UHGV virus genome: UHGV-0200722 | DNA length: 40,554 bases | DNA from: a virus | Strand: one strand, 5' to 3' | Part shown: positions 23,616-38,942 of the stretch, one piece after another | How the letters are laid out: every line of letters begins with the position of its first letter | Numbering within the stretch: the stretch's first letter is position 1 | Notes under the pieces: generated by a model | What the model was told of the DNA's origin: nothing | The model's database searches: none | What the model saw: the letters and a program-made list of their open reading frames with translations, nothing else | Translations under genes and position numbers: made by a program

Positions 23616-23641
23616 AAACCCACCGTCAGGTGGGTTTTTTG
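23616..23641. terminator. Bidirectional rho-independent terminator between the Panacea module and mnt
   Basis: AAACCCACC-gtcag-GTGGGTTT flanked by an A-run and a T-run. Confidence 0.8.
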
Positions 23642-23877
23642 TACAAATCCTTCAGCGTATCAAACACCATCTTCTTAACAAGCTCTGACTGCTCATCAGC
23701 GAGTCGTTCTGCATCGTCGCGATATCCAGTCACAGGCGATGGTTTTGATAGAGCATCTTGGACGATTTGTAACAACTCGGAGTTCATTGATCTCCCATTC
23801 GCCTCCGCCCTGAATTTTAATTTCTCCCTTACTTCCATAGGCATACGGAAGTTAAAGTGCGGATCATCTCTAGCCAT
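23626..23877 (-). CDS. mnt: Mnt repressor (immI maintenance repressor of ant)
   Basis: 83-aa translation is essentially P22 Mnt as recalled (MARDDPHFNFRMPMEVREKLKFRAEANGRSMNSELLQIVQDAL...). Confidence 0.95.
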   Translation of the reverse strand: MARDDPHFNFRMPMEVREKLKFRAEANGRSMNSELLQIVQDALSKPSPVTGYRDDAERLADEQSELVKKMVFDTLKDLYKKPT

Positions 23878-23967
23878 GCCATCACTCCAAGTTAGTGTAT
23901 TGACATGATAGAAGCACTCTACTATATTCTCAATAGGTCCACGGTGGACCTATATTGTGAGGTGAAT
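23878..23967. promoter_or_regulatory. immI control region: Pant (-35 TTGACA 23900..23905, -10 TATATT 23923..23928) with Arc operator in the spacer, and Mnt operator palindrome AGGTCCACGGTGGACCT (23935..23951)
   Basis: Sequence ...gtattgacatgatagaagcactctactatattctcaataggtccacggtggaccta... matches the classical P22 Pant/Oarc/Omnt arrangement. Confidence 0.85.
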
Positions 23968-24129
23968 ATGAAAGGAATGAGCAAGATGCCGCAGTTCAAT
24001 TTGCGGTGGCCTAAAGAAGTATTGGATTTGGTACGCAAGGTGGCGGAAGAGAATGGTCGGTCTGTTAACTCTGAGATTTATCAGAGAGTAATGGAAAGCT
24101 TTAAGAAGGAAGGGCGCATTGGCGCGTAA
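23968..24129 (+). CDS. arc: Arc repressor
   Basis: Internal start [53 protein letters not shown]; matches P22 Arc (53 aa). The track ORF from 23905 is an upstream extension. Confidence 0.95.
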
Positions 24130-24133
24130 AGTT

Positions 24134-24200
24134 GAAGCCCCAACTGCGGGAACAGTCAGGGCTTCGGTTGTCAGTAAATCCGTGGAGAAAAACCAACATG
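24134..24200 (-). ncRNA. sar: Candidate sar-like antisense RNA region across the arc-ant junction (boundaries approximate)
   Basis: In P22 a small antisense RNA covers the ant RBS and ends at a hairpin between arc and ant; a GAAGCCC...GGGCTTC hairpin lies at 24134..24164. The promoter was not identified here. Confidence 0.3.
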
Positions 24201-25133
24201 AATAGTATAGCAATTTTAGAAGCAGTGAACACCTCTTACGTACCATTCAACGGTCAGCAAATTATCACCGCCATGGCTGCCGGAGTTGCATACGTTGCGA
24301 TGAAGCCAATCGTTGAAAACCTTGGAATGAGCTGGTCAACGCAGCAAACAAAACTCATGAAGCAGATTAGCAAATTCAACTGTGTTCATATGAACATGGT
24401 TGCCGCTGATGGGAAGCTTCGTAAGCTACTCTGCCTTCCTTTGAAGAAGTTAAATGGATGGCTGTTCAGCATCAACCCTGAGAAAGTTCGTGCTGACATC
24501 CGTGATAAACTGATTCAGTACCAGGAGGAATGCTTTAGCGTGCTGCATGACTACTGGACTAAAGGCCATGTAGTTAACCCACGCAAAGCTAAAAAGGCGT
24601 TGCCGGGTAAAATCACCACTGAGCAGCAGGAAGCCATTAAACAACTCGTCATGAGTCGCGGTCAGTCTCTGCCAAAAGAAAAACAGGCGAAGGCAATGAT
24701 TACCATGTGGTCGTCACTGAAATCCCATTTTGGATGTTCGTACAAAGAAATCAGTGAGGAGCAGTTTACCGAAGCACTGTCACTTGCAGCTCGAGTTCCA
24801 CTTGAAGGCGAGTTCATTGGCAAACAAGAGAGGAAAGTCAAAGAGCTTTCTGCAAAAGAAGCAAACAGCCTTGTATGGTTATGGGATTATGCCAACCGCT
24901 CACAGGCATTATTCCGCGAACTGTATCCGGCGCTGAAACAAATTCAATCGAACTATTCCGGCAGATGCTACGACTATGGTCATGAGTTCTCGTATGTTAT
25001 CGGAATGGCGAGAGACGTTTTAATAAACCACACACGAGATGTTGATATCAATGAGCCAGACGGACCAACGAATCTTTCCGCATGGATGAGACTTAAGAAT
25101 AAAGAATTACCTCCTTCAGTACATAACTACTGA
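24198..25133 (+). CDS. ant: Antirepressor Ant
   Basis: Start [14 protein letters not shown]... at 24198 downstream of arc; ~311 aa; classical immI position. Confidence 0.85.
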
Positions 25134-31710: not shown

Positions 31711-32118
31711 TCACTCTCCTTTGATGCGAATGCCAGTAGCGCGGATTGCATCGATGACTTCAGAAACTTTGTATGCCATTACCGTTTGGTAATCATCGTG
31801 AAAATCTGTTCGATGAAGCATGCTGCTACGTTCCGGGAGCAGTATTTCCCGCGCTTTCAGTTCTGCAATGCGCTTTTTTGCTGCTTCCAGTTCATCCAGT
31901 AATTCCAGCACGGTAGCCGGATTAGCCTTGGCAACAAAATCCCGGACTTGCTTACAATCAATCTCCGCAATGGGTTGATACGATGTGTAGCCATGCTGTC
32001 TTGTATAACTACCGTGACGAATAACGAAAAAATCACCATTTATTTTTTTAGCCTGCCACTTATCTTCACCGGCTTTCTCTGCCGCTTCACGCAGTGCCTG
32101 ATAGTCAATCTTGCTCAC
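31711..32118 (-). CDS. Ead/Ea22-like protein
   Basis: GTG start at 32118 with an AGGGAG RBS; the N-terminal SKIDYQALREAAEKAG... motif is characteristic of Ead/Ea22-like proteins. Confidence 0.6.
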   Translation of the reverse strand: MSKIDYQALREAAEKAGEDKWQAKKINGDFFVIRHGSYTRQHGYTSYQPIAEIDCKQVRDFVAKANPATVLELLDELEAAKKRIAELKAREILLPERSSMLHRTDFHDDYQTVMAYKVSEVIDAIRATGIRIKGE

Positions 32119-35147: not shown

Positions 35148-35348
35148 TTAGGCAGCCTTGTTGTTCTGTTTACCAAGTTCTCTGGCAATCATTGCCGTCG
35201 TTCGTATTGCCCATTTATCGACATATTTCCCATCTTCCATTACAGGAAACATTTCTTCAGGCTTAACCATGCATTCCGATTGCAGCTTGCATCCATTGCA
35301 TCGTTTGAATTGTCCACACCATTGATTCTTATCAATAGTCGTAGTCAT
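35148..35348 (-). CDS. ral: Ral restriction-alleviation protein
   Basis: 66-aa translation matches lambda Ral as I recall it. Confidence 0.75.
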   Translation of the reverse strand: MTTTIDKNQWCGQFKRCNGCKLQSECMVKPEEMFPVMEDGKYVDKWAIRTTAMIARELGKQNNKAA

Positions 35349-35426
35349 ACGGATAGTCCTGGTATTGTTCCATCACATCCTGCGGATGCTCTTCGAACTC
35401 TTCAAATTCTTCTTCCATATATCACC

Positions 35427-35753
35427 TCAAATAAGTGGTTTGCTGCCTAATTTCATTTTCTGGCGACCAACACAAGTCACCCCCATTTCACTGCGTGGCT
35501 TGCTGTACCATGTGCGCTGATTCTTGCGCTCAATACGTTGCAGGTTGCTTTCAATCTGTTCGTGGTATTCAGCCAGCACCGTAAGGTCTATCGGATTCAG
35601 TGCGCTTTCTACTCGTGATTTCGGTTTGCGATTCAGCGAGAGAATAGGGCGGTTAACTGGTTTTGCGCTTACCCCAACCAACAGGGGGTTTGCTGCTTTC
35701 CATTGAGCCTGTTTCTCTGCGCGACGTTCGCGGCGGCGTGTTTGTGCATCCAT
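35427..35753 (-). CDS. N: N antiterminator (lambda-type)
   Basis: From the internal start MDAQTRRRERRAEKQAQWKAANPLLVGV... the translation matches lambda N, including the arginine-rich boxB-binding motif; a lambda nutL lies upstream. Confidence 0.9.
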   Translation of the reverse strand: MDAQTRRRERRAEKQAQWKAANPLLVGVSAKPVNRPILSLNRKPKSRVESALNPIDLTVLAEYHEQIESNLQRIERKNQRTWYSKPRSEMGVTCVGRQKMKLGSKPLI

Positions 35754-35926
35754 CTTGATTCTCCTGTCAGTTAGCTTTGGTGGTGTGGTAGGTGGGAGAC
35801 CCATTTCGACCTGCTTCGGCCGACTTCAATTCGGCAATAGTTCCGCAGGCCTCGCCGCTTTACGTGCGACATATTCCCATCCATGAACCCTTCACCACAC
35901 CCCAAAGCCTTCTGCTTTGAATGCTG

Positions 35927-35957
35927 CCCTTCTTCAGGGCTTAATTTTTAAGAGCGT
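35927..35957 (-). promoter_or_regulatory. nutL (boxA CGCTCTTAA and boxB GCCCTGAAGAAGGGC on the - strand)
   Basis: Reverse complement of 35927..35957 reads CGCTCTTAAAAATTAAGCCCTGAAGAAGGGC, the lambda nutL sequence. Confidence 0.9.
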
Positions 35958-35996
35958 CACCTTCATGGTGGTCAGTGCGTCCTGCTGATGGCTTAA

Positions 35997-36040
35997 AATA
36001 TACCTACAGGTAAAACCCATGTCTATACCTGTAGGTAAAT
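35997..36040 (-). promoter_or_regulatory. PL promoter (-35 TAGACA, -10 TATATT on the - strand) overlapped by OL operators TACCTACAGGTA (36003..36014) and TACCTGTAGGTA (36026..36037)
   Basis: 12-bp inverted-repeat operators of the form TACCT-NNN-GGTA, also present at OR; hexamers separated by 17 nt. Confidence 0.65.
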
Positions 36041-36098
36041 AAAATTGATGTGAGAGTTTACCTGCTTGAATTTTCAGGTAATTAATTTTTTGGATTGA

Positions 36099-36124
36099 TA
36101 TAAAAAAGCCCGCTTTGCGGGCTA
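36099..36124 (-). terminator. Rho-independent terminator after the cI-linked operon (read on - strand)
   Basis: AGCCCGC-aaag-GCGGGCT followed by TTTTTTATAT on the - strand. Confidence 0.75.
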
Positions 36125-36134
36125 AAAGGAGATG

Positions 36135-36449
36135 TCAGAAGCTATTTGGATTGCTTGGCCATTGCGGCAATTTTGATTCTACTGGGGTGTGTTTGGGTTT
36201 GAGTCCGTTTAAGTAGTCAAGGCGCTCAATGGCGCATTTATACATAGCAATCTGCTCTGATGACATGTCGTCGTATGACATGCCTTTGAACTTTTTAATT
36301 ATCGATTCTGCCTCATGTATAAGATTCTTCTTCCTCATGAGTTCAGTTGTATGCTTAGAGCTTACAGGAGATAACTTTGCCCATATGAAGCAGATGATTA
36401 CAACAGCGACTACTATGCCGGGTATAAACATTTGCTGCTTTATCCTCAA
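36135..36449 (-). CDS. Small single-pass membrane protein cotranscribed with cI (candidate lysogen-expressed exclusion or defence protein)
   Basis: 104 aa with N-terminal TM helix FIPGIVVAVVIICFIWAKL; start codon overlaps the cI stop (ATGA); a terminator follows directly. Confidence 0.65.
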   Translation of the reverse strand: MRIKQQMFIPGIVVAVVIICFIWAKLSPVSSKHTTELMRKKNLIHEAESIIKKFKGMSYDDMSSEQIAMYKCAIERLDYLNGLKPKHTPVESKLPQWPSNPNSF

Positions 36450-37132
36450 ACTTTTGGCAGATCGTCCTGGTCTACGTACCTGGTGTGTTTCACAATAGCT
36501 GAAACAAAATGCATTTTATCAACTTCTTCAACAGGAAGAGTGATTGGGCGGTGATCACTGTTTATGCTACTAAACTGATAATCACCGTCTCTTGTTTTGT
36601 TCATGATCTTTATCATGTTGTGACCGTCTTTGGTCCTTACAAAGACTTCATCACCTGGATGTACTGGCGTATTTGGTTCAATAACAACATATTCTCCTGA
36701 CTGAATCCTTGGCCACATGCTGTCACCCTTAACCTTCAGACCGTAAGCATCTTTATCGCCGCTGTAGATGCTTAACCAACCGGATCTGAATTCAATCATA
36801 TCCACTGAGCCATCAACTCCCAAAACGGCTTCACCAATTACCGGAACAAAACCCGCACGAACGTTACCCGCAAACTCAAGATGGTCCGTAGCTCCAGCTT
36901 TACCATCTGCAAGCATGTCCATCCATCCGCGTGGGAGATTAAAAGATTTTTCAATTAGTTCCATCATATCGTCAGCAATGCGTTTTTTTCCGCTTTTTCC
37001 TTCCGGATACAGCATTCTGGAAACGTATGATGGTTCCCTTTCTATTCGACGAGCCAACTCTGAGGCCTTTCCATTACAGAATCGGTCTCTTATCTCTATC
37101 AGCCTTAGTCGTCTTTGTTCGTATTTATCCAT
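36446..37132 (-). CDS. cI: cI-type immunity repressor (HTH plus S24 LexA-like autopeptidase domain)
   Basis: 228 aa; C-terminal domain with Ala-Gly site(s), GDSM serine motif and a downstream Lys; divergent from cro; flanked by OR and OL. Confidence 0.9.
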   Translation of the reverse strand: MDKYEQRRLRLIEIRDRFCNGKASELARRIEREPSYVSRMLYPEGKSGKKRIADDMMELIEKSFNLPRGWMDMLADGKAGATDHLEFAGNVRAGFVPVIGEAVLGVDGSVDMIEFRSGWLSIYSGDKDAYGLKVKGDSMWPRIQSGEYVVIEPNTPVHPGDEVFVRTKDGHNMIKIMNKTRDGDYQFSSINSDHRPITLPVEEVDKMHFVSAIVKHTRYVDQDDLPKV

Positions 37133-37149
37133 GATTTAATTCTATCTTT

Positions 37150-37210
37150 GATTACCTGCCGGTAAATAACCTATGGGTATTGATTTGCTTTTTACCTACA
37201 GGTAAACTCA
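37150..37210. promoter_or_regulatory. OR/PR/PRM region: operators TACCTGCCGGTA (37154..37165) and TACCTACAGGTA (37194..37205); PR -35 TTGATT (37180..37185), -10 TAAACT (37203..37208)
   Basis: Same 12-bp operator family as OL; sits between divergent cI and cro. Confidence 0.7.
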
Positions 37211-37240
37211 TCTTATTCAACAACGGGAAGGAGATAGCAA

Positions 37241-37471
37241 ATGGAAGAACTCCGCTTGTATCTGAACTCCCTTTCACTGGAAGAGCAGAGAGAATTTGCC
37301 ACCAAGTGCGGAACTTCTATCGGCTATTTGAGGAAAGCACTTAGCCGTAATCATGAATTGGGCGCAGCACTTTGTGTTCTGATTGAGAGGTTCAGCAATG
37401 GTGAAGTGACTCGCAAAGACCTTCATCCGGTTGATTGGGAAAGCATCTGGCCTGAATTAATGGCCGCTTAA
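37241..37471 (+). CDS. cro: Cro-like repressor (HTH)
   Basis: 76-aa protein transcribed divergently from cI off PR; HTH-like segment ATKCGTSIGYLRKAL; GGAGA RBS. Confidence 0.75.
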   Translation: MEELRLYLNSLSLEEQREFATKCGTSIGYLRKALSRNHELGAALCVLIERFSNGEVTRKDLHPVDWESIWPELMAA

Positions 37472-37479
37472 GTTATTAA

Positions 37480-37511
37480 CGCTCTTACACATCCCCGCCC
37501 TGAAAAAGGGC
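37480..37511 (+). promoter_or_regulatory. nutR (boxA CGCTCTTAC, boxB GCCCTGAAAAAGGGC)
   Basis: CGCTCTTACACATCCCCGCCCTGAAAAAGGGC; matches lambda nutR as recalled. Confidence 0.85.
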
Positions 37512-37587
37512 ATTACCAGAAACAAATCTCTATGGTTTTGCGTTTCTTTGCGAAGCCAACTCTATCTAATCATTAAGGAAATTATCT

Positions 37588-37869
37588 ATGGGTACTATTG
37601 CAACTAAAAGCAAGAAAGCGGCTCGCATCGAGTCAGCCTTGCTGAACAAACTGGCACTGATGGGGCAGAAGACATTCGCTCGAGCAATGGGGGTTCCTGA
37701 ATATCAGGTAAGCCGATGGAAGAATGGTTTCTTCTCGCAGGTAAGCATGATGCTGGCTGTTCTGGAATACGGAATCGAAGACGATGAAATGGCTGAGCTG
37801 ACTAAGCGGCTTGCCAATTACCTGACAAAAGAAAAAACCCCGAAGAACGGCGAATTCTTCGAGGCCTGA
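37588..37869 (+). CDS. cII: cII transcriptional activator
   Basis: Aligns with lambda cII (RIESALLNK...SRWK...MLLAVLE.G..DD.MA.L). Confidence 0.85.
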   Translation: MGTIATKSKKAARIESALLNKLALMGQKTFARAMGVPEYQVSRWKNGFFSQVSMMLAVLEYGIEDDEMAELTKRLANYLTKEKTPKNGEFFEA

Positions 37870-37903
37870 TGTAGAAAGACTGGATCAATCCACAGGAGTA
37901 ATT

Positions 37904-38065
37904 ATGACAAAACGTCGTAAGAAATACCAGGAAAAAGAAGAGATTCGACACCCTGATTCACCTGAGGGATTAGTGGTAGCCGCAGCAAATAACAGGGCGT
38001 TCGCAGAGCGCCTTGTTGGTGTTTACAGACTAGCCAAAGCAGGAGTGAAACATGGGCGTCGTTAA
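37904..38065 (+). CDS. Hypothetical small basic protein between cII and O
   Basis: Manual 53-aa ORF (MTKRRKKYQEKEEIRHPDSPEGLVVAAANNRAFAERLVGVYRLAKAGVKHGRR) with an AGGAG RBS; its end overlaps the O start. Confidence 0.4.
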   Translation: MTKRRKKYQEKEEIRHPDSPEGLVVAAANNRAFAERLVGVYRLAKAGVKHGRR

Positions 38066-38942
38066 GTTAGCTGATTACAGGCATAACCCTGTACAACATC
38101 AGGAGGCATCCAGTATGGGGTATGTCTCTATACACCGCCAGTTTATGGACAGCAGGCTCTATAAGGACTCTCAGGCAGTACATCTTTGGCTTCACTTAAT
38201 CCTCAAGGCTAATCACGAATCTACTGTCGTCAATACGGATATCGGTCCGATAACTGTTGATCGCGGTCAGATGATAACTGGACGCCCGTCGCTGGTCAGA
38301 GAAACATTCATCCCCGACAACAAAGTTCGGAGCTTATTACGGACTTTTGAGTCGAAAGGGATGCTTAATATTTGCTCGATGGGGAAGAAATTTAGCCTGT
38401 TTACAATCGTTAAATATGACGATTTTCAGGCAAAAAATTGTCCAACGGTTGTCCAACGGTTGTCCAACGCAACCCCCAGTAATGGCGCCGCTCTCAGCGG
38501 AGATTGTCCAACGGATGTCCAACGGTTGTCCATAAACAATAATATAAATAATATCTCTAATACTGACGTATTAGAGAGTACCGCAGCAGACAAAAAGTCT
38601 GACAAGAAAAAACCTTCCGTTAGCTGTCAGGATGTTGTCGATGCTTACCACGAAATCCTTCCTGAAGCGCCAAGAATCCGCGCACTGAATGACAAGCGTA
38701 AAAACCAGATCCGAACGTTCTGGCGCAAAGCCGGAGTGATAACCCGCCAGCTTGACGGGCATGGGTTCACGATGCAGGACTGGAGAAATTATTTGAGCTA
38801 CGTAGGCGAAAATTGCCGATGGATGTTCGAAGAGCGCCCAAACCATCAACGCGGAACCGTCTGGCACAAAAAGGGATTTGATTTCCTGCTTAACGACAAT
38901 ACCTACCTGAAAGTTCGTGAGGGTGAACACGATGACCGATAA
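38052..38942 (+). CDS. O: Replication initiator O-like protein
   Basis: 296 aa, upstream of the helicase; contains the iteron array that its N-terminal domain presumably binds. Confidence 0.8.
   Translation: MGVVKLADYRHNPVQHQEASSMGYVSIHRQFMDSRLYKDSQAVHLWLHLILKANHESTVVNTDIGPITVDRGQMITGRPSLVRETFIPDNKVRSLLRTFESKGMLNICSMGKKFSLFTIVKYDDFQAKNCPTVVQRLSNATPSNGAALSGDCPTDVQRLSINNNINNISNTDVLESTAADKKSDKKKPSVSCQDVVDAYHEILPEAPRIRALNDKRKNQIRTFWRKAGVITRQLDGHGFTMQDWRNYLSYVGENCRWMFEERPNHQRGTVWHKKGFDFLLNDNTYLKVREGEHDDR
38438..38533 (+). repeat. Replication-origin iterons: 5-6 copies of TTGTCCAACGG in two clusters inside the O gene
   Basis: ttgtccaacgg ttgtccaacgg ttgtccaacgc ... attgtccaacgg atgtccaacgg ttgtccat. 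Confidence 0.85.
38534..38575 (+). other. AT-rich segment following the iterons (candidate DNA-unwinding element of the origin)
   Basis: aaacaataatataaataatatctctaatactgacgtatta directly follows the iteron array. Confidence 0.6.

Follow-up and report, generated by a model that had tools for sequence, protein, structure and literature searches.

A lambda-family lysis-lysogeny control region of the mEp043 type with predicted TACC-YRYR-GGTA operators

Judged by its sequence, the region at positions 35927-37511 of the window (the whole stretch of 40,554 nucleotides analyzed here) is an ordinary example of the region by which lambda-family prophages control lysis and lysogeny, and is of the mEp043 type. 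Our best explanation, in which we have high confidence, is that a lambdoid prophage of the P22-like (HK620/Sf6-like) kind has here its immC (early regulatory) region, with the immunity specificity of mEp043 and with the mechanism proposed below. The first-pass annotation had described a hybrid immunity region. A mosaic of lambda-type N, nutL, and nutR with a heterologous immunity module it is, but the combination is not new, being that of the published phage mEp043 c-1. The coupling of lambda N and nut sites to a non-lambda immunity is normal lambdoid mosaicism, and what is modestly new is only the operator reading, TACC-YRYR-GGTA, for mEp043-type immunity.

Gene content and kinship with mEp043

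Compared with phage mEp043 c-1 (JQ182734/NC_019706; also PV340537), the DNA of positions 35401-37913 is 97-98.6% identical, and that of the region itself 98.5%. The cI proteins are 100% identical. The two sequences have in common the gene order N, 104-aa open reading frame (ORF), cI, cro, and cII, as well as PL and all five predicted operator sites. In the OR interval they differ at a single spacer nucleotide; of the OL sites, OL1 is unchanged and OL2 carries one central-base change (TACCTATAGGTA in mEp043). Sharing its cI, cro, and operator sequences, the window would also be expected to share the immunity specificity of mEp043. In mEp043 c-1, the N leader segment corresponding to 35799-35889 is replaced, a few point differences occur elsewhere, and the replication genes are unlike those of the window. 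The structural genes of the window are HK620/Sf6-like. The mEp immunity groups were reportedly defined by Kameyama in 1999, as cited by other papers. mEp043 has been reported as a separate immunity group of its own (PMC3442831). A lambda-like N, a 933W-like repressor, and, at the same position, a "putative PL" already figure in the annotation of its GenBank record (JQ182734); the mEp043 records leave the operators without annotation.

The antitermination module is of the lambda type in both the protein and its targets. Residues 1-60 of N are identical to those of lambda N, a match that includes the arginine-rich MDAQTRRRERRAEKQAQW, the N-terminal boxB-binding motif. The early observations that N carries the lambda arginine-rich motif and that the nut sites match those of lambda were thus borne out, with nutL matching at 100% and nutR differing at two spacer positions only. 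The PL and PR transcripts would each contain a boxA and a boxB hairpin with a GAARA loop. The inferred 5' end of the PL leader, ATCAGCAGGACG, starts at 35989 and corresponds to the start of the lambda PL mRNA.

The immunity module itself is not lambda-like in repressor, cro, or operators, again as first noticed. In global alignments, cI and Cro are 21% and 17% identical to their lambda counterparts, and the sequence from 35991 to ~37479 does not align to lambda; lambda immunity specificity (imm-lambda) was rejected on these grounds. The cI protein joins a predicted N-terminal helix-turn-helix to a C-terminal LexA-like S24 domain (Pfam Peptidase_S24, E=1.4e-17), with GDSM at residues 136-139 and Lys175 as the candidate catalytic lysine, and is predicted to cleave itself. 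The position aligned with the lambda Ala-Gly cleavage pair reads Leu-Gly, and Ala-Gly itself is found at residues 79, 88, and 93 of cI.

In an AlphaFold model, residues 1-95 of cI form four helices (pLDDT of 82-90 over residues 1-70). This model matches phage and Xre-type helix-turn-helix proteins, the best Foldseek match being Rep of a Salmonella temperate phage (5d50; TM 0.66-0.70, 26% identity, E=1.5e-3), and it is on the model and this match that we assign the domain to the helix-turn-helix class. Pfam reported no helix-turn-helix family in residues 1-94 (best MarR, E=0.12), and when the PDB was searched by sequence with cI, nothing meaningful came up for the DNA-binding domain. The score of Cro against Pfam YdaS_toxin, 25.3 bits, is below the cut-off. 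For the 104-aa ORF, neither Pfam nor PADLOC gave a match, and Rfam gave none inside the region, its sole match in the window being a sar RNA at 24130-24197. The features of the region are listed in Table 1.

Table 1. Genes, signals, and predicted sites of the control region and its flanks, by position in the window
Feature	Position	Strand	Description
N, antitermination gene, lambda type, 108 aa	35427..35753	-	98/108 aa identical (91%) to lambda N; Pfam N36, E=1.5e-26
PL-transcribed leader	35901..35990 (90 nt)	-	100% identical to lambda 35494-35583 (pairwise alignment)
nutL	35926..35956	-	boxA CGCTCTTA (35949-56), spacer, boxB GCCCTGAAGAAGGGC (35926-40); identical to lambda nutL
PL promoter	35997..36025	-	-35 TAGACA (36020-25), 17-bp spacer, -10 TATATT (35997-36002); promoter scan 10/12
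Predicted OL1	36001..36012	.	TACCTACAGGTA; in PL spacer, 2-nt overlap with -10
Predicted OL2	36026..36037	.	TACCTGTAGGTA; abuts PL -35; 25 bp centre-to-centre from OL1
Split inverted repeat	36058..36081	.	TTACCTG-N10-CAGGTAA; its two arms resemble operator half-sites but stand 10 bp too far apart
Intrinsic terminator, end of cI operon	36100..36123	-	AGCCCGCAAAGCGGGCT + T6; terminator scan
104-aa ORF in rexAB position	36135..36449	-	One predicted membrane helix; overlaps cI stop; phrog_10450 (unknown function), E=2.4e-53; hypothetical in mEp043
cI repressor, 228 aa	36446..37132	-	Predicted N-terminal helix-turn-helix (~residues 1-72) and S24 LexA-like autoprotease domain (~95-221)
PRM promoter	37139..37166	-	-35 TTTACC (37161-66), 16-bp spacer, -10 TAGAAT (37139-44); promoter scan 9/12
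Predicted OR3	37153..37164	.	TACCTGCCGGTA; overlaps PRM -35 and spacer
Predicted OR2	37168..37179	.	AACCTATGGGTA; weaker, 1 mismatch/one imperfect half-site; abuts PR -35; centre ~-41.5 from predicted PRM start
Putative PR promoter	37180..37208	+	-35 TTGATT (37180-85), 17-bp spacer, -10 TAAACT (37203-08); by eye, 8/12, below scanner threshold
Predicted OR1	37193..37204	.	TACCTACAGGTA; in PR spacer, 2-nt overlap with -10
cro, YdaS-type helix-turn-helix Cro, 76 aa	37241..37471	+	phmmer E=3e-10 to PDB 8co2/8c7k, YdaS of prophage CP-933P
nutR	37480..37511	+	boxA CGCTCTTA, spacer CACATCCCC, boxB GCCCTGAAAAAGGGC; boxA/boxB identical to lambda, 2 spacer substitutions
cII, 93 aa	37588..37869	+	Pfam Phage_CII, E=6.9e-30
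cII boxes of PRE-like promoter	37600-37613	-	TTGC-N6-TTGC; found in sequence; annotated in mEp043

Predicted operators and promoters

We looked for an immC layout in the form of a gap of ~100 bp with inverted-repeat operators over PR and PRM, together with a second cluster on PL. The window has divergent cI (ATG at 37132) and cro (37241), three sites between them at 37153-37204, and two on PL at 36001-36037. As in lambda, the predicted sites overlap PL, PR, and PRM. Their overlap with plausible PL and PR hexamers, noticed at first pass, holds, PL being called by the promoter scan and PR remaining a putative assignment made by eye; relatives have TTGACT in place of its -35 hexamer TTGATT. The PRM -10 stops 6 nt short of the cI ATG, and a leaderless cI mRNA is therefore predicted, with its start at 37132, the A of this codon; the predicted start for PR is ~37215.

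Four exact TACCTNNNGGTA sites are present (OL1, OL2, OR3, and OR1 in Table 1), and these are very probably the operators. The first-pass annotation had found all four, with starts (36003, 36026, 37154, and 37194) that were off by 2, 0, 1, and 1 nt, and had written them as TACCT-NNN-GGTA; they are better described as the palindrome TACC-YRYR-GGTA (extended TTACC....GGTAA). It had suggested that each operator be scanned for a third, weaker site: on the right OR2 is present, and on the left a search allowing up to 3 mismatches gave no canonical third site and nothing beyond the split inverted repeat. Two near-matches, at 31780-91 and 37582-95, were rejected as operators, being intragenic or broken in the core and probably due to chance. 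A full-text search with the four operator strings, whose coverage did not extend to the key mEp papers, returned unrelated primers and sequences and no published operator description.

Among mEp043-type loci, substitutions fall in the central bases of the sites and in the spacers between them: OL1 is unchanged in 6 such loci while the neighbouring 7-nt spacer varies, and variation in OL2 among relatives of the same immunity is confined to its central two bases. The motif is also kept in 10 loci whose repressor DNA-binding domains are 51-81% identical to that of the window, drawn from E. coli Rac-like prophages, Yersinia, phage CharmingMan, and GC-rich metagenomic contigs, and the Cro proteins of these relatives are homologous to that of the window (53-72% identity). 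Distances in them are 24-25 bp for OR1-OR2, 15 bp for OR2-OR3, 32-33 bp from OR3 to the ATG, and 25-26 bp for OL2-OL1. A site equivalent to OL1 is found even in distant relatives, the 25-bp OL pair is kept across the family, and the position and imperfect half-site of OR2 are kept in 10/10. The centre reads YRYR in all 24 of the strong sites, and the two G residues of the right half-site, which had been left out when the site search was anchored, are conserved in 41/44 and 44/44.

We consider it unlikely that the boundaries or the number of the sites differ from this 12-bp model, whether as operators of 14-16 bp (TTTACC....GGTAAA) or through a third, unconventional OL site at the split repeat, which would allow lambda-like OL-OR looping. 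A longer operator would fit the enrichment of flanking T/A, positions -1 and -2 being T/A in most sites, and in every mEp043-type locus examined the split repeat, at a distance of 38 bp from the centre of OL2, offers two perfect extended half-sites. However, the repeat occurs only in those loci and is absent from other members of the family, one of its arms is mutated in L006 (CAGGTAA to CAGGCAA), and a helix-turn-helix dimer is unlikely to bridge half-sites lying 10 bp further apart. In addition, no more than two OL sites are reported for 933W, whose C-terminal domain makes it the nearest relative (PMC5977221).

It is far less credible that the TACC...GGTA palindromes arose by chance, serve a structural role, or are the targets of another protein, with the repressor binding elsewhere in the intergenic regions. 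In favour of such a reading, two further perfect TACC-N4-GGTA matches lie inside genes, at 9946 and 31780. Yet neither of these has a YRYR centre. The 40.5 kb of the window contain the core 6 times, and 4 of these copies lie in the two control regions; from shuffled sequence 0.21 +/- 0.46 copies would be expected, and none of 100 shuffles reached 6. The sites are moreover placed exactly on PL, PR, and PRM, and motif and spacing persist in otherwise unalignable loci of differing GC content, always beside the same DNA-binding domain and Cro.

Mosaic joints and proposed mechanism

The joints of the mosaic fall exactly on functional borders. The left one is the right end of the 35901-35990 block, at about -1/+1 of PL, and the right one lies at the cro stop and nutR. 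Both are kept in 52/52 carriers of the mEp043-type immunity module among 5426 complete E. coli genomes, carriers that come from many hosts and countries, and the lambda-type nutL leader, present in 853 genomes, is joined to other immunity regions in ~800 besides these. We give almost no credence to a recent, unusual recombinant of this genome alone, a reading that the leader could suggest by being 100% lambda from the PL start past nutL and unrelated beyond the joint, since it is already contradicted by the recurrence of the same joints in the carrier genomes and in mEp043 c-1, which was isolated in Mexico in the 1990s (PMC9836094).

For the mEp043-type control region, we infer the following course of protein binding, occupancy, PRM activation, leaderless start, and induction. 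The cI repressor, made from a probably leaderless PRM transcript, would bind as a dimer through its N-terminal helix-turn-helix to the 12-bp TACC-YRYR-GGTA sites. Occupation of OL1 and OL2 would block PL, and occupation of OR1 and OR2 would block PR. From its position, repressor on OR2 could activate PRM, as in lambda, and OR3, lying over the PRM -35, would shut PRM off at high repressor concentrations. We expect the YdaS-type Cro to act at these sites too, with its preference among them reversed. Upon inactivation of cI through its S24 domain (RecA-stimulated self-cleavage), or possibly by the P22-type antirepressor Ant of the phage, PL and PR would fire, and lambda-type N made from PL would load at nutL and nutR, with their lambda-identical boxA and boxB, and permit readthrough of downstream terminators. 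The OR2-OR3 spacing is 15 bp, where lambda has 23 bp; neighbouring dimers would thus sit on almost opposite sides of the DNA helix, and alternate pairwise cooperativity of the lambda kind is not to be taken for granted. The 933W repressor, which has a homologous C-terminal domain, has been reported to bind OR1 and OR2 without cooperativity (PMC5977221), and the occupancy logic here may differ from that of lambda.

The repressors of the family end in three unrelated types of C-terminal domain. As the same motif and spacing occur with all three, specificity follows the DNA-binding domain. We put forward tentatively, as a possibility to which we assign somewhat less than even weight, that the N-terminal domain (MDKYE..RR...PSYVSRMLYPEGKKGKKRIADDM), the YdaS-type Cro, and the TACC-YRYR-GGTA operators constitute a widespread, biochemically uncharacterized, portable switch cassette. 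Its geometry would be nearly rigid (OR1-25-OR2-15-OR3-32-leaderless ATG and OL2-25-OL1), and it would combine with three or more unrelated kinds of C-terminal domain (933W-type S24, lambda-type S24, and protease-less DicA-like). If so, operator layout and promoter logic would be set by the DNA-binding domain and its RNA polymerase contacts, not by C-terminal cooperativity, and the 15-bp OR2-OR3 spacing may encode an occupancy rule unlike that of lambda.

For general biology the region itself carries little weight, as the exchange of immunity modules among lambdoid phages sharing N and nut has long been known and this exact region is in GenBank as mEp043. The analysis has three useful by-products. 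It defines, at the level of sequence, the predicted operators of an immunity type found in ~1% of complete E. coli genomes; it offers a clean case from nature in which operator specificity travels with DNA-binding domain and Cro through swaps of the repressor C-terminal domain; and it places the joints precisely enough to be of use in building hybrid phages or orthogonal pairs of repressor and operator.

Comparison with known systems

Among the systems sharing the DNA-binding domain, the short repressors of E. coli Rac-like (P0010 and P0014) and Yersinia (P0005) prophages and the cI of CharmingMan have the same motif, the same OR and OL spacing, and a homologous Cro. Their C-terminal domains are either DicA-like (27-46% identity to K-12 DicA, without S24) or lambda-cI-like S24 (39%). 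Their early genes differ from those of the window, several having YdaT instead of cII, and they are without lambda N. RacR of the K-12 Rac prophage was considered as a relative, since several homologues lie in Rac-like prophages, and was rejected: it has no similarity to the cI of the window, and its intergenic region contains other repeats and not the motif.

The best structural match to the DNA-binding domain, Rep of the Salmonella temperate phage (PDB 5d50/5d4z), superimposes with an rmsd of 1.7 A over 72 columns (chain K); in sequence the two resemble each other too little for Rep to come up when the PDB is searched with cI. Rep is reportedly controlled by an antirepressor, not by S24 cleavage, as the entry title also has it. 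The PaaR2/YdaS switch of CP-933P has a YdaS-family Cro, as here (PDB 8c7k/8co2, E ~3e-10), a leaderless repressor gene, and lambda-like PR/PRM/PL logic (PMC8630535). The PaaR2 operators were rejected as equivalents of those in the window, their consensus, GTTTAGTAA, being different (PMC8630535).

The nearest characterized repressor is that of 933W/phi24B. Its S24 domain is 66% identical to that of cI over residues 95-221, residues 1-94 have no detectable similarity, and the 933W Cro is unrelated (22% identity). Three OR sites and two OL sites are described for 933W in work of the Koudelka laboratory (PMC3317979, PMC5977221), the same numbers as predicted here, but its operators and those of phi24B are of 15 bp, as in TGAACCAATAGTTCG (PMC3317979, PMC5977221). 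As this and a further phi24B operator, AGAACTATTGGTACG, differ from our sites, and similarity is limited to the C-terminal domain, 933W/phi24B immunity specificity was rejected. The possibility raised at first pass, that the sites belong to a well-described immunity type with different boundaries, thus finds no counterpart in the closest case.

Lambda has the same layout, consisting of N, nutL, PL/OL, a cI operon, a tripartite OR with divergent PRM and PR, cro, nutR, and cII. The predicted leaderless PRM transcript and the location of OR2 near -42 are further points of likeness. Apart from cI and Cro, the differences lie in the operators and in the genes beside cI: lambda has 17-bp operators, spaced by 24 and 23 bp in OR and three in number in OL, whereas the window has predicted operators of 12 bp, spaced by 25 and 15 bp in OR and two in number in OL, and one small ORF stands here in place of the rexA and rexB of lambda.

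An N/nut module joined to the mEp043 immunity type

The first-pass annotation had read the region as a mosaic in which a lambda-type N/nut module is coupled to another immunity specificity, and this interpretation is supported. N is identical to lambda N at 98 of 108 residues and matches Pfam N36, nutL lies in a 90-nt block (35901-35990) with 100% identity to lambda 35494-35583, and nutR has boxA and boxB as in lambda, with two spacer substitutions, whereas cI and Cro are non-lambda (21% and 17% identity, respectively). The lambda identity covering the N leader and nutL ends at 35990, at position -1 relative to the inferred PL start (35989; RNA beginning AUCAGCAGGACG), the counterpart of the 5' end of lambda PL mRNA. 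On the right, lambda similarity restarts at boxA of nutR (37480), 9 nt past the cro stop, and beyond nutR it is weak (66%) and extends into cII. The immunity module is thus exactly the promoter-to-cro segment, from 35991 to about 37479. Within the PL leader, the stretch from nutL to the N start codon (35799-35889) is replaced relative to mEp043 and different in each E. coli prophage compared, with the nutL block and the N gene conserved on either side; it looks like a small hypervariable segment. As in lambda, N is followed immediately downstream by the restriction-alleviation gene ral (phrog_1055; E=1.7e-49).

Over 35401-37913, the DNA is 97 to 98.6% identical to that of the lambdoid phage mEp043 c-1 (JQ182734/NC_019706), and the cI proteins are 100% identical. 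mEp043 is described as forming an immunity group of its own (PMC3442831) and is among the Mexican lambdoid isolates selected to represent various immunity groups (PMC9836094). In its GenBank record, N is annotated as lambda-like and the repressor as "similar to CI of 933W," alongside Cro and cII with its binding site; the "putative PL" of the record maps exactly onto 35997-36025, and no operators are annotated. The structural genes of the window are HK620/Sf6-like, which makes the phage a P22-like podovirus and places the mEp043 immunity module in a different virion background, as expected of lambdoid mosaics. The immunity core occurs in 52 of 5,426 complete E. coli genomes (95 to 99.8% identity, always chromosomal). 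The lambda-type nutL leader is found in 853 genomes and is therefore joined to many other immunity types. Since both joints, nutL-OL and cro-nutR, are present in 52/52 carriers as well as in mEp043, the "hybrid" is the normal state of this immunity type and not a new recombinant. The feature is ordinary: a known, sequenced immunity type that follows textbook lambdoid modularity.

Predicted operators, promoters, and repressor

The four 12-bp sites noted earlier in the left and right control regions are real as exact matches to TACCTNNNGGTA, but their positions had been misplaced by 0 to 2 nt. There are six copies of the palindromic core TACC-N4-GGTA in the 40.5-kb window, where dinucleotide-preserving shuffles predict 0.21, and four of the six are these operator-region sites. 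The other two perfect matches, inside coding regions at 31780-31791 (TACCGTTTGGTA; 4.2 kb into the PL operon) and 9946-9957 (TACCGGGCGGTA), are probably due to chance, because their centers are not YRYR. A third, weaker site per operator had also been raised; at OR it is present as OR2, and the OL region contains no canonical OL3. The sole OL3 candidate, located between OL2 and the terminator of the cI operon, is TTACCTG-N10-CAGGTAA, a split inverted repeat. Its two halves are perfect extended operator half-sites, but their separation is one helical turn too large; the repeat is confined to mEp043-type loci, one of which (L006, an E. coli prophage) has a mutated arm. Centers are spaced 25 bp apart for OR1-OR2 and OL1-OL2 and 15 bp apart for OR2-OR3. 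A full-text literature search found no paper containing these operator sequences.

Features of the immunity region and other parts of the window
Feature	Position	Strand	Description
SocA/Panacea-domain ORF	22740-23189		Pfam E=8e-25
mnt	23626-23877	minus	P22-type immI region
arc	23905-24129	plus	P22-type immI region
sar	24130-24197	minus	P22-type immI region; antisense RNA, Rfam RF00262, 95.6 bits
ant	24132-25133	plus	P22-type immI region; antirepressor gene
ral	35148-35348	minus	
N	35427-35753		
nutL	35926-35956	minus	
PL	36025 to 35997	minus	TAGACA-17-TATATT, 10/12
OL1	36001-36012		predicted, exact
OL2	36026-36037		predicted, exact
Split repeat	36058-36081		OL3 candidate
Terminator	36107-36123	minus	strong, intrinsic; end of cI operon
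104-aa ORF	36135-36449	minus	one predicted membrane helix; overlaps cI stop, co-transcribed with cI, rexAB position
cI	36446-37132	minus	
PRM	37166 to 37139	minus	TTTACC-16-TAGAAT, 9/12
OR3	37153-37164		predicted, exact
OR2	37168-37179		predicted, weaker; AACCTATGGGTA
PR	37180-37208	plus	TTGATT-17-TAAACT, 8/12, read by eye
OR1	37193-37204		predicted, exact
cro	37241-37471		
nutR	37480-37511		
cII-associated boxes	37600-37613		TTGC-N6-TTGC
O-like replication gene	38052-38942		
Iteron array	38426-38543		six copies

OL1 lies within the PL spacer, overlapping the -10 hexamer, and OL2 abuts the -35; OR1 is placed on PR as OL1 is on PL, with OR2 abutting the PR -35. OR3 overlaps the -35 of PRM, and because only 6 nt separate the PRM -10 from the cI ATG, the cI mRNA is predicted to be leaderless, as in lambda. 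The center of OR2 falls at about -41.5 from the predicted PRM start, which is where lambda cI sits when it activates PRM. The cII gene and its TTGC boxes indicate a PRE-type establishment promoter. For this switch, we infer binding, cooperativity, PRM activation, and inducibility.

The N-terminal domain of cI matched no Pfam family and, by sequence search, no PDB relative. An AlphaFold model based on 67 homologues (pLDDT 82 to 90 over residues 1-70) places helices at 3-18, 23-29, 34-40, and 54-63. As modeled, the domain is a helix-turn-helix whose recognition helix is probably PSYVSRM; a conserved basic loop, LYPEGKxGKKRIA, comes next. In the Foldseek comparison, Rep, a repressor from a temperate phage of Salmonella, ranked first (5d50; TM 0.66-0.70, 26% identity), and the next were Xre-type C proteins, HigA, and YdaS. 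The C-terminal domain is a Peptidase_S24 domain that contains GDSM and a candidate catalytic lysine. Cro matches YdaS of prophage CP-933P (E about 3e-10), a protein of solved structure that was shown to act as a Cro (PMC8630535). The 104-aa ORF matched phrog_10450 (annotated as of unknown function) and nothing in Pfam and PADLOC scans; its candidate role is in lysogenic conversion or exclusion.

Conservation of the predicted operators among repressor relatives

Comparison of mEp043 with four E. coli prophages that carry mEp043-type loci shows substitutions in the two central site bases and the inter-site spacers, while the TACC and GGTA arms and promoter hexamers are invariant; the 7-nt stretch separating OL1 from the PL -35, for instance, is different at nearly all of these loci. 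When cI residues 1-94 served as the only query, 84 proteins were retrieved, mostly of 130 to 165 aa and without an S24 domain. The relatives' contigs came from E. coli Rac-like prophages, Yersinia, and GC-rich metagenomic bacteria, and phage CharmingMan (PP925830) was added through a separate phage search. Upstream of the repressor gene, all relatives have three TACC-N4-GGTA-like sites; the spacings are 25 bp (24 bp in two loci) and 15 bp, and the last site lies 32 to 33 bp before the repressor ATG. Those with sequence available also have a pair 25 to 26 bp apart on the leftward promoter, downstream of the repressor operon. Across 44 sites, the right arm, which was not part of the search anchor, has GG at 41/44 and 44/44, T at 42/44, and A at 34/44. 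The central positions follow Y-R-Y-R in 40 to 42 of the 44 sites and in 24/24 strong ones (OR1, OL1, and OL2), and one arm of OR2 is always degenerate (GGTT, GGGC, or GGTC in 9/10).

The divergent Cro genes of the relatives are homologous to the window Cro (53 to 72% identity). The repressor C-terminal domain is a 933W-type S24 domain in the window (66% identical to phi24B cI over residues 95-221), a lambda-type S24 domain in CharmingMan (39% identical to lambda cI), and DicA-like without protease in the short proteins of E. coli Rac-like and Yersinia prophages (27 to 46% identical to K-12 DicA). Since motif and geometry are kept across three unrelated C-terminal domains, in loci with a common DNA-binding domain, Cro family, and operator geometry (L009-L014, L016-L019, and L021), they track the DNA-binding domain and Cro and not the rest of the repressor. 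Of the computational evidence available, this pattern lends the predicted operator assignment its strongest support. The same DNA-binding domain with three C-terminal types also implies a mosaic joint inside the repressor gene, near residue 75-95. What is new here is small: the definition of the operator as TACC-YRYR-GGTA, a third site at OR, the exact joints, and an operator and geometry cassette common to a repressor family with interchangeable C-terminal domains.

Other features and known immunity types

Through its P22-type immI genes the phage has a second region of immunity, and the antirepressor encoded there might inactivate the mEp043-type cI. Between the injection genes and immI, the SocA/Panacea-domain ORF and an overlapping 164-aa ORF without a family (together 22740-23613) may be a toxin-antitoxin or defense cargo pair. 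Inside the O-like gene, the 11-bp iteron TTGTCCAACGG recurs in two triplets 44 bp apart, probably forming the replication origin, as in lambda.

With respect to known types, K-12 RacR and CP-933P PaaR2 belong to other specificity families than this cI, and the cI and Cro identities rule out imm-lambda. Imm-933W is ruled out because the 933W/phi24B operators are 15-bp sites (e.g., TGAACCAATAGTTCG) and the DNA-binding domain is unrelated. The cI of phage SfV (L020) is a more distant relative, with a DNA-binding domain 39% identical; there, GTACC-N5-RRTAC repeats flank cI (1404-1472 and 2200-2260), with the same half-site and a spacer one base longer. Like 933W, the region has three OR sites and only two OL sites, and the predicted switch would work as that of lambda does, with the N/nut system also common to both.
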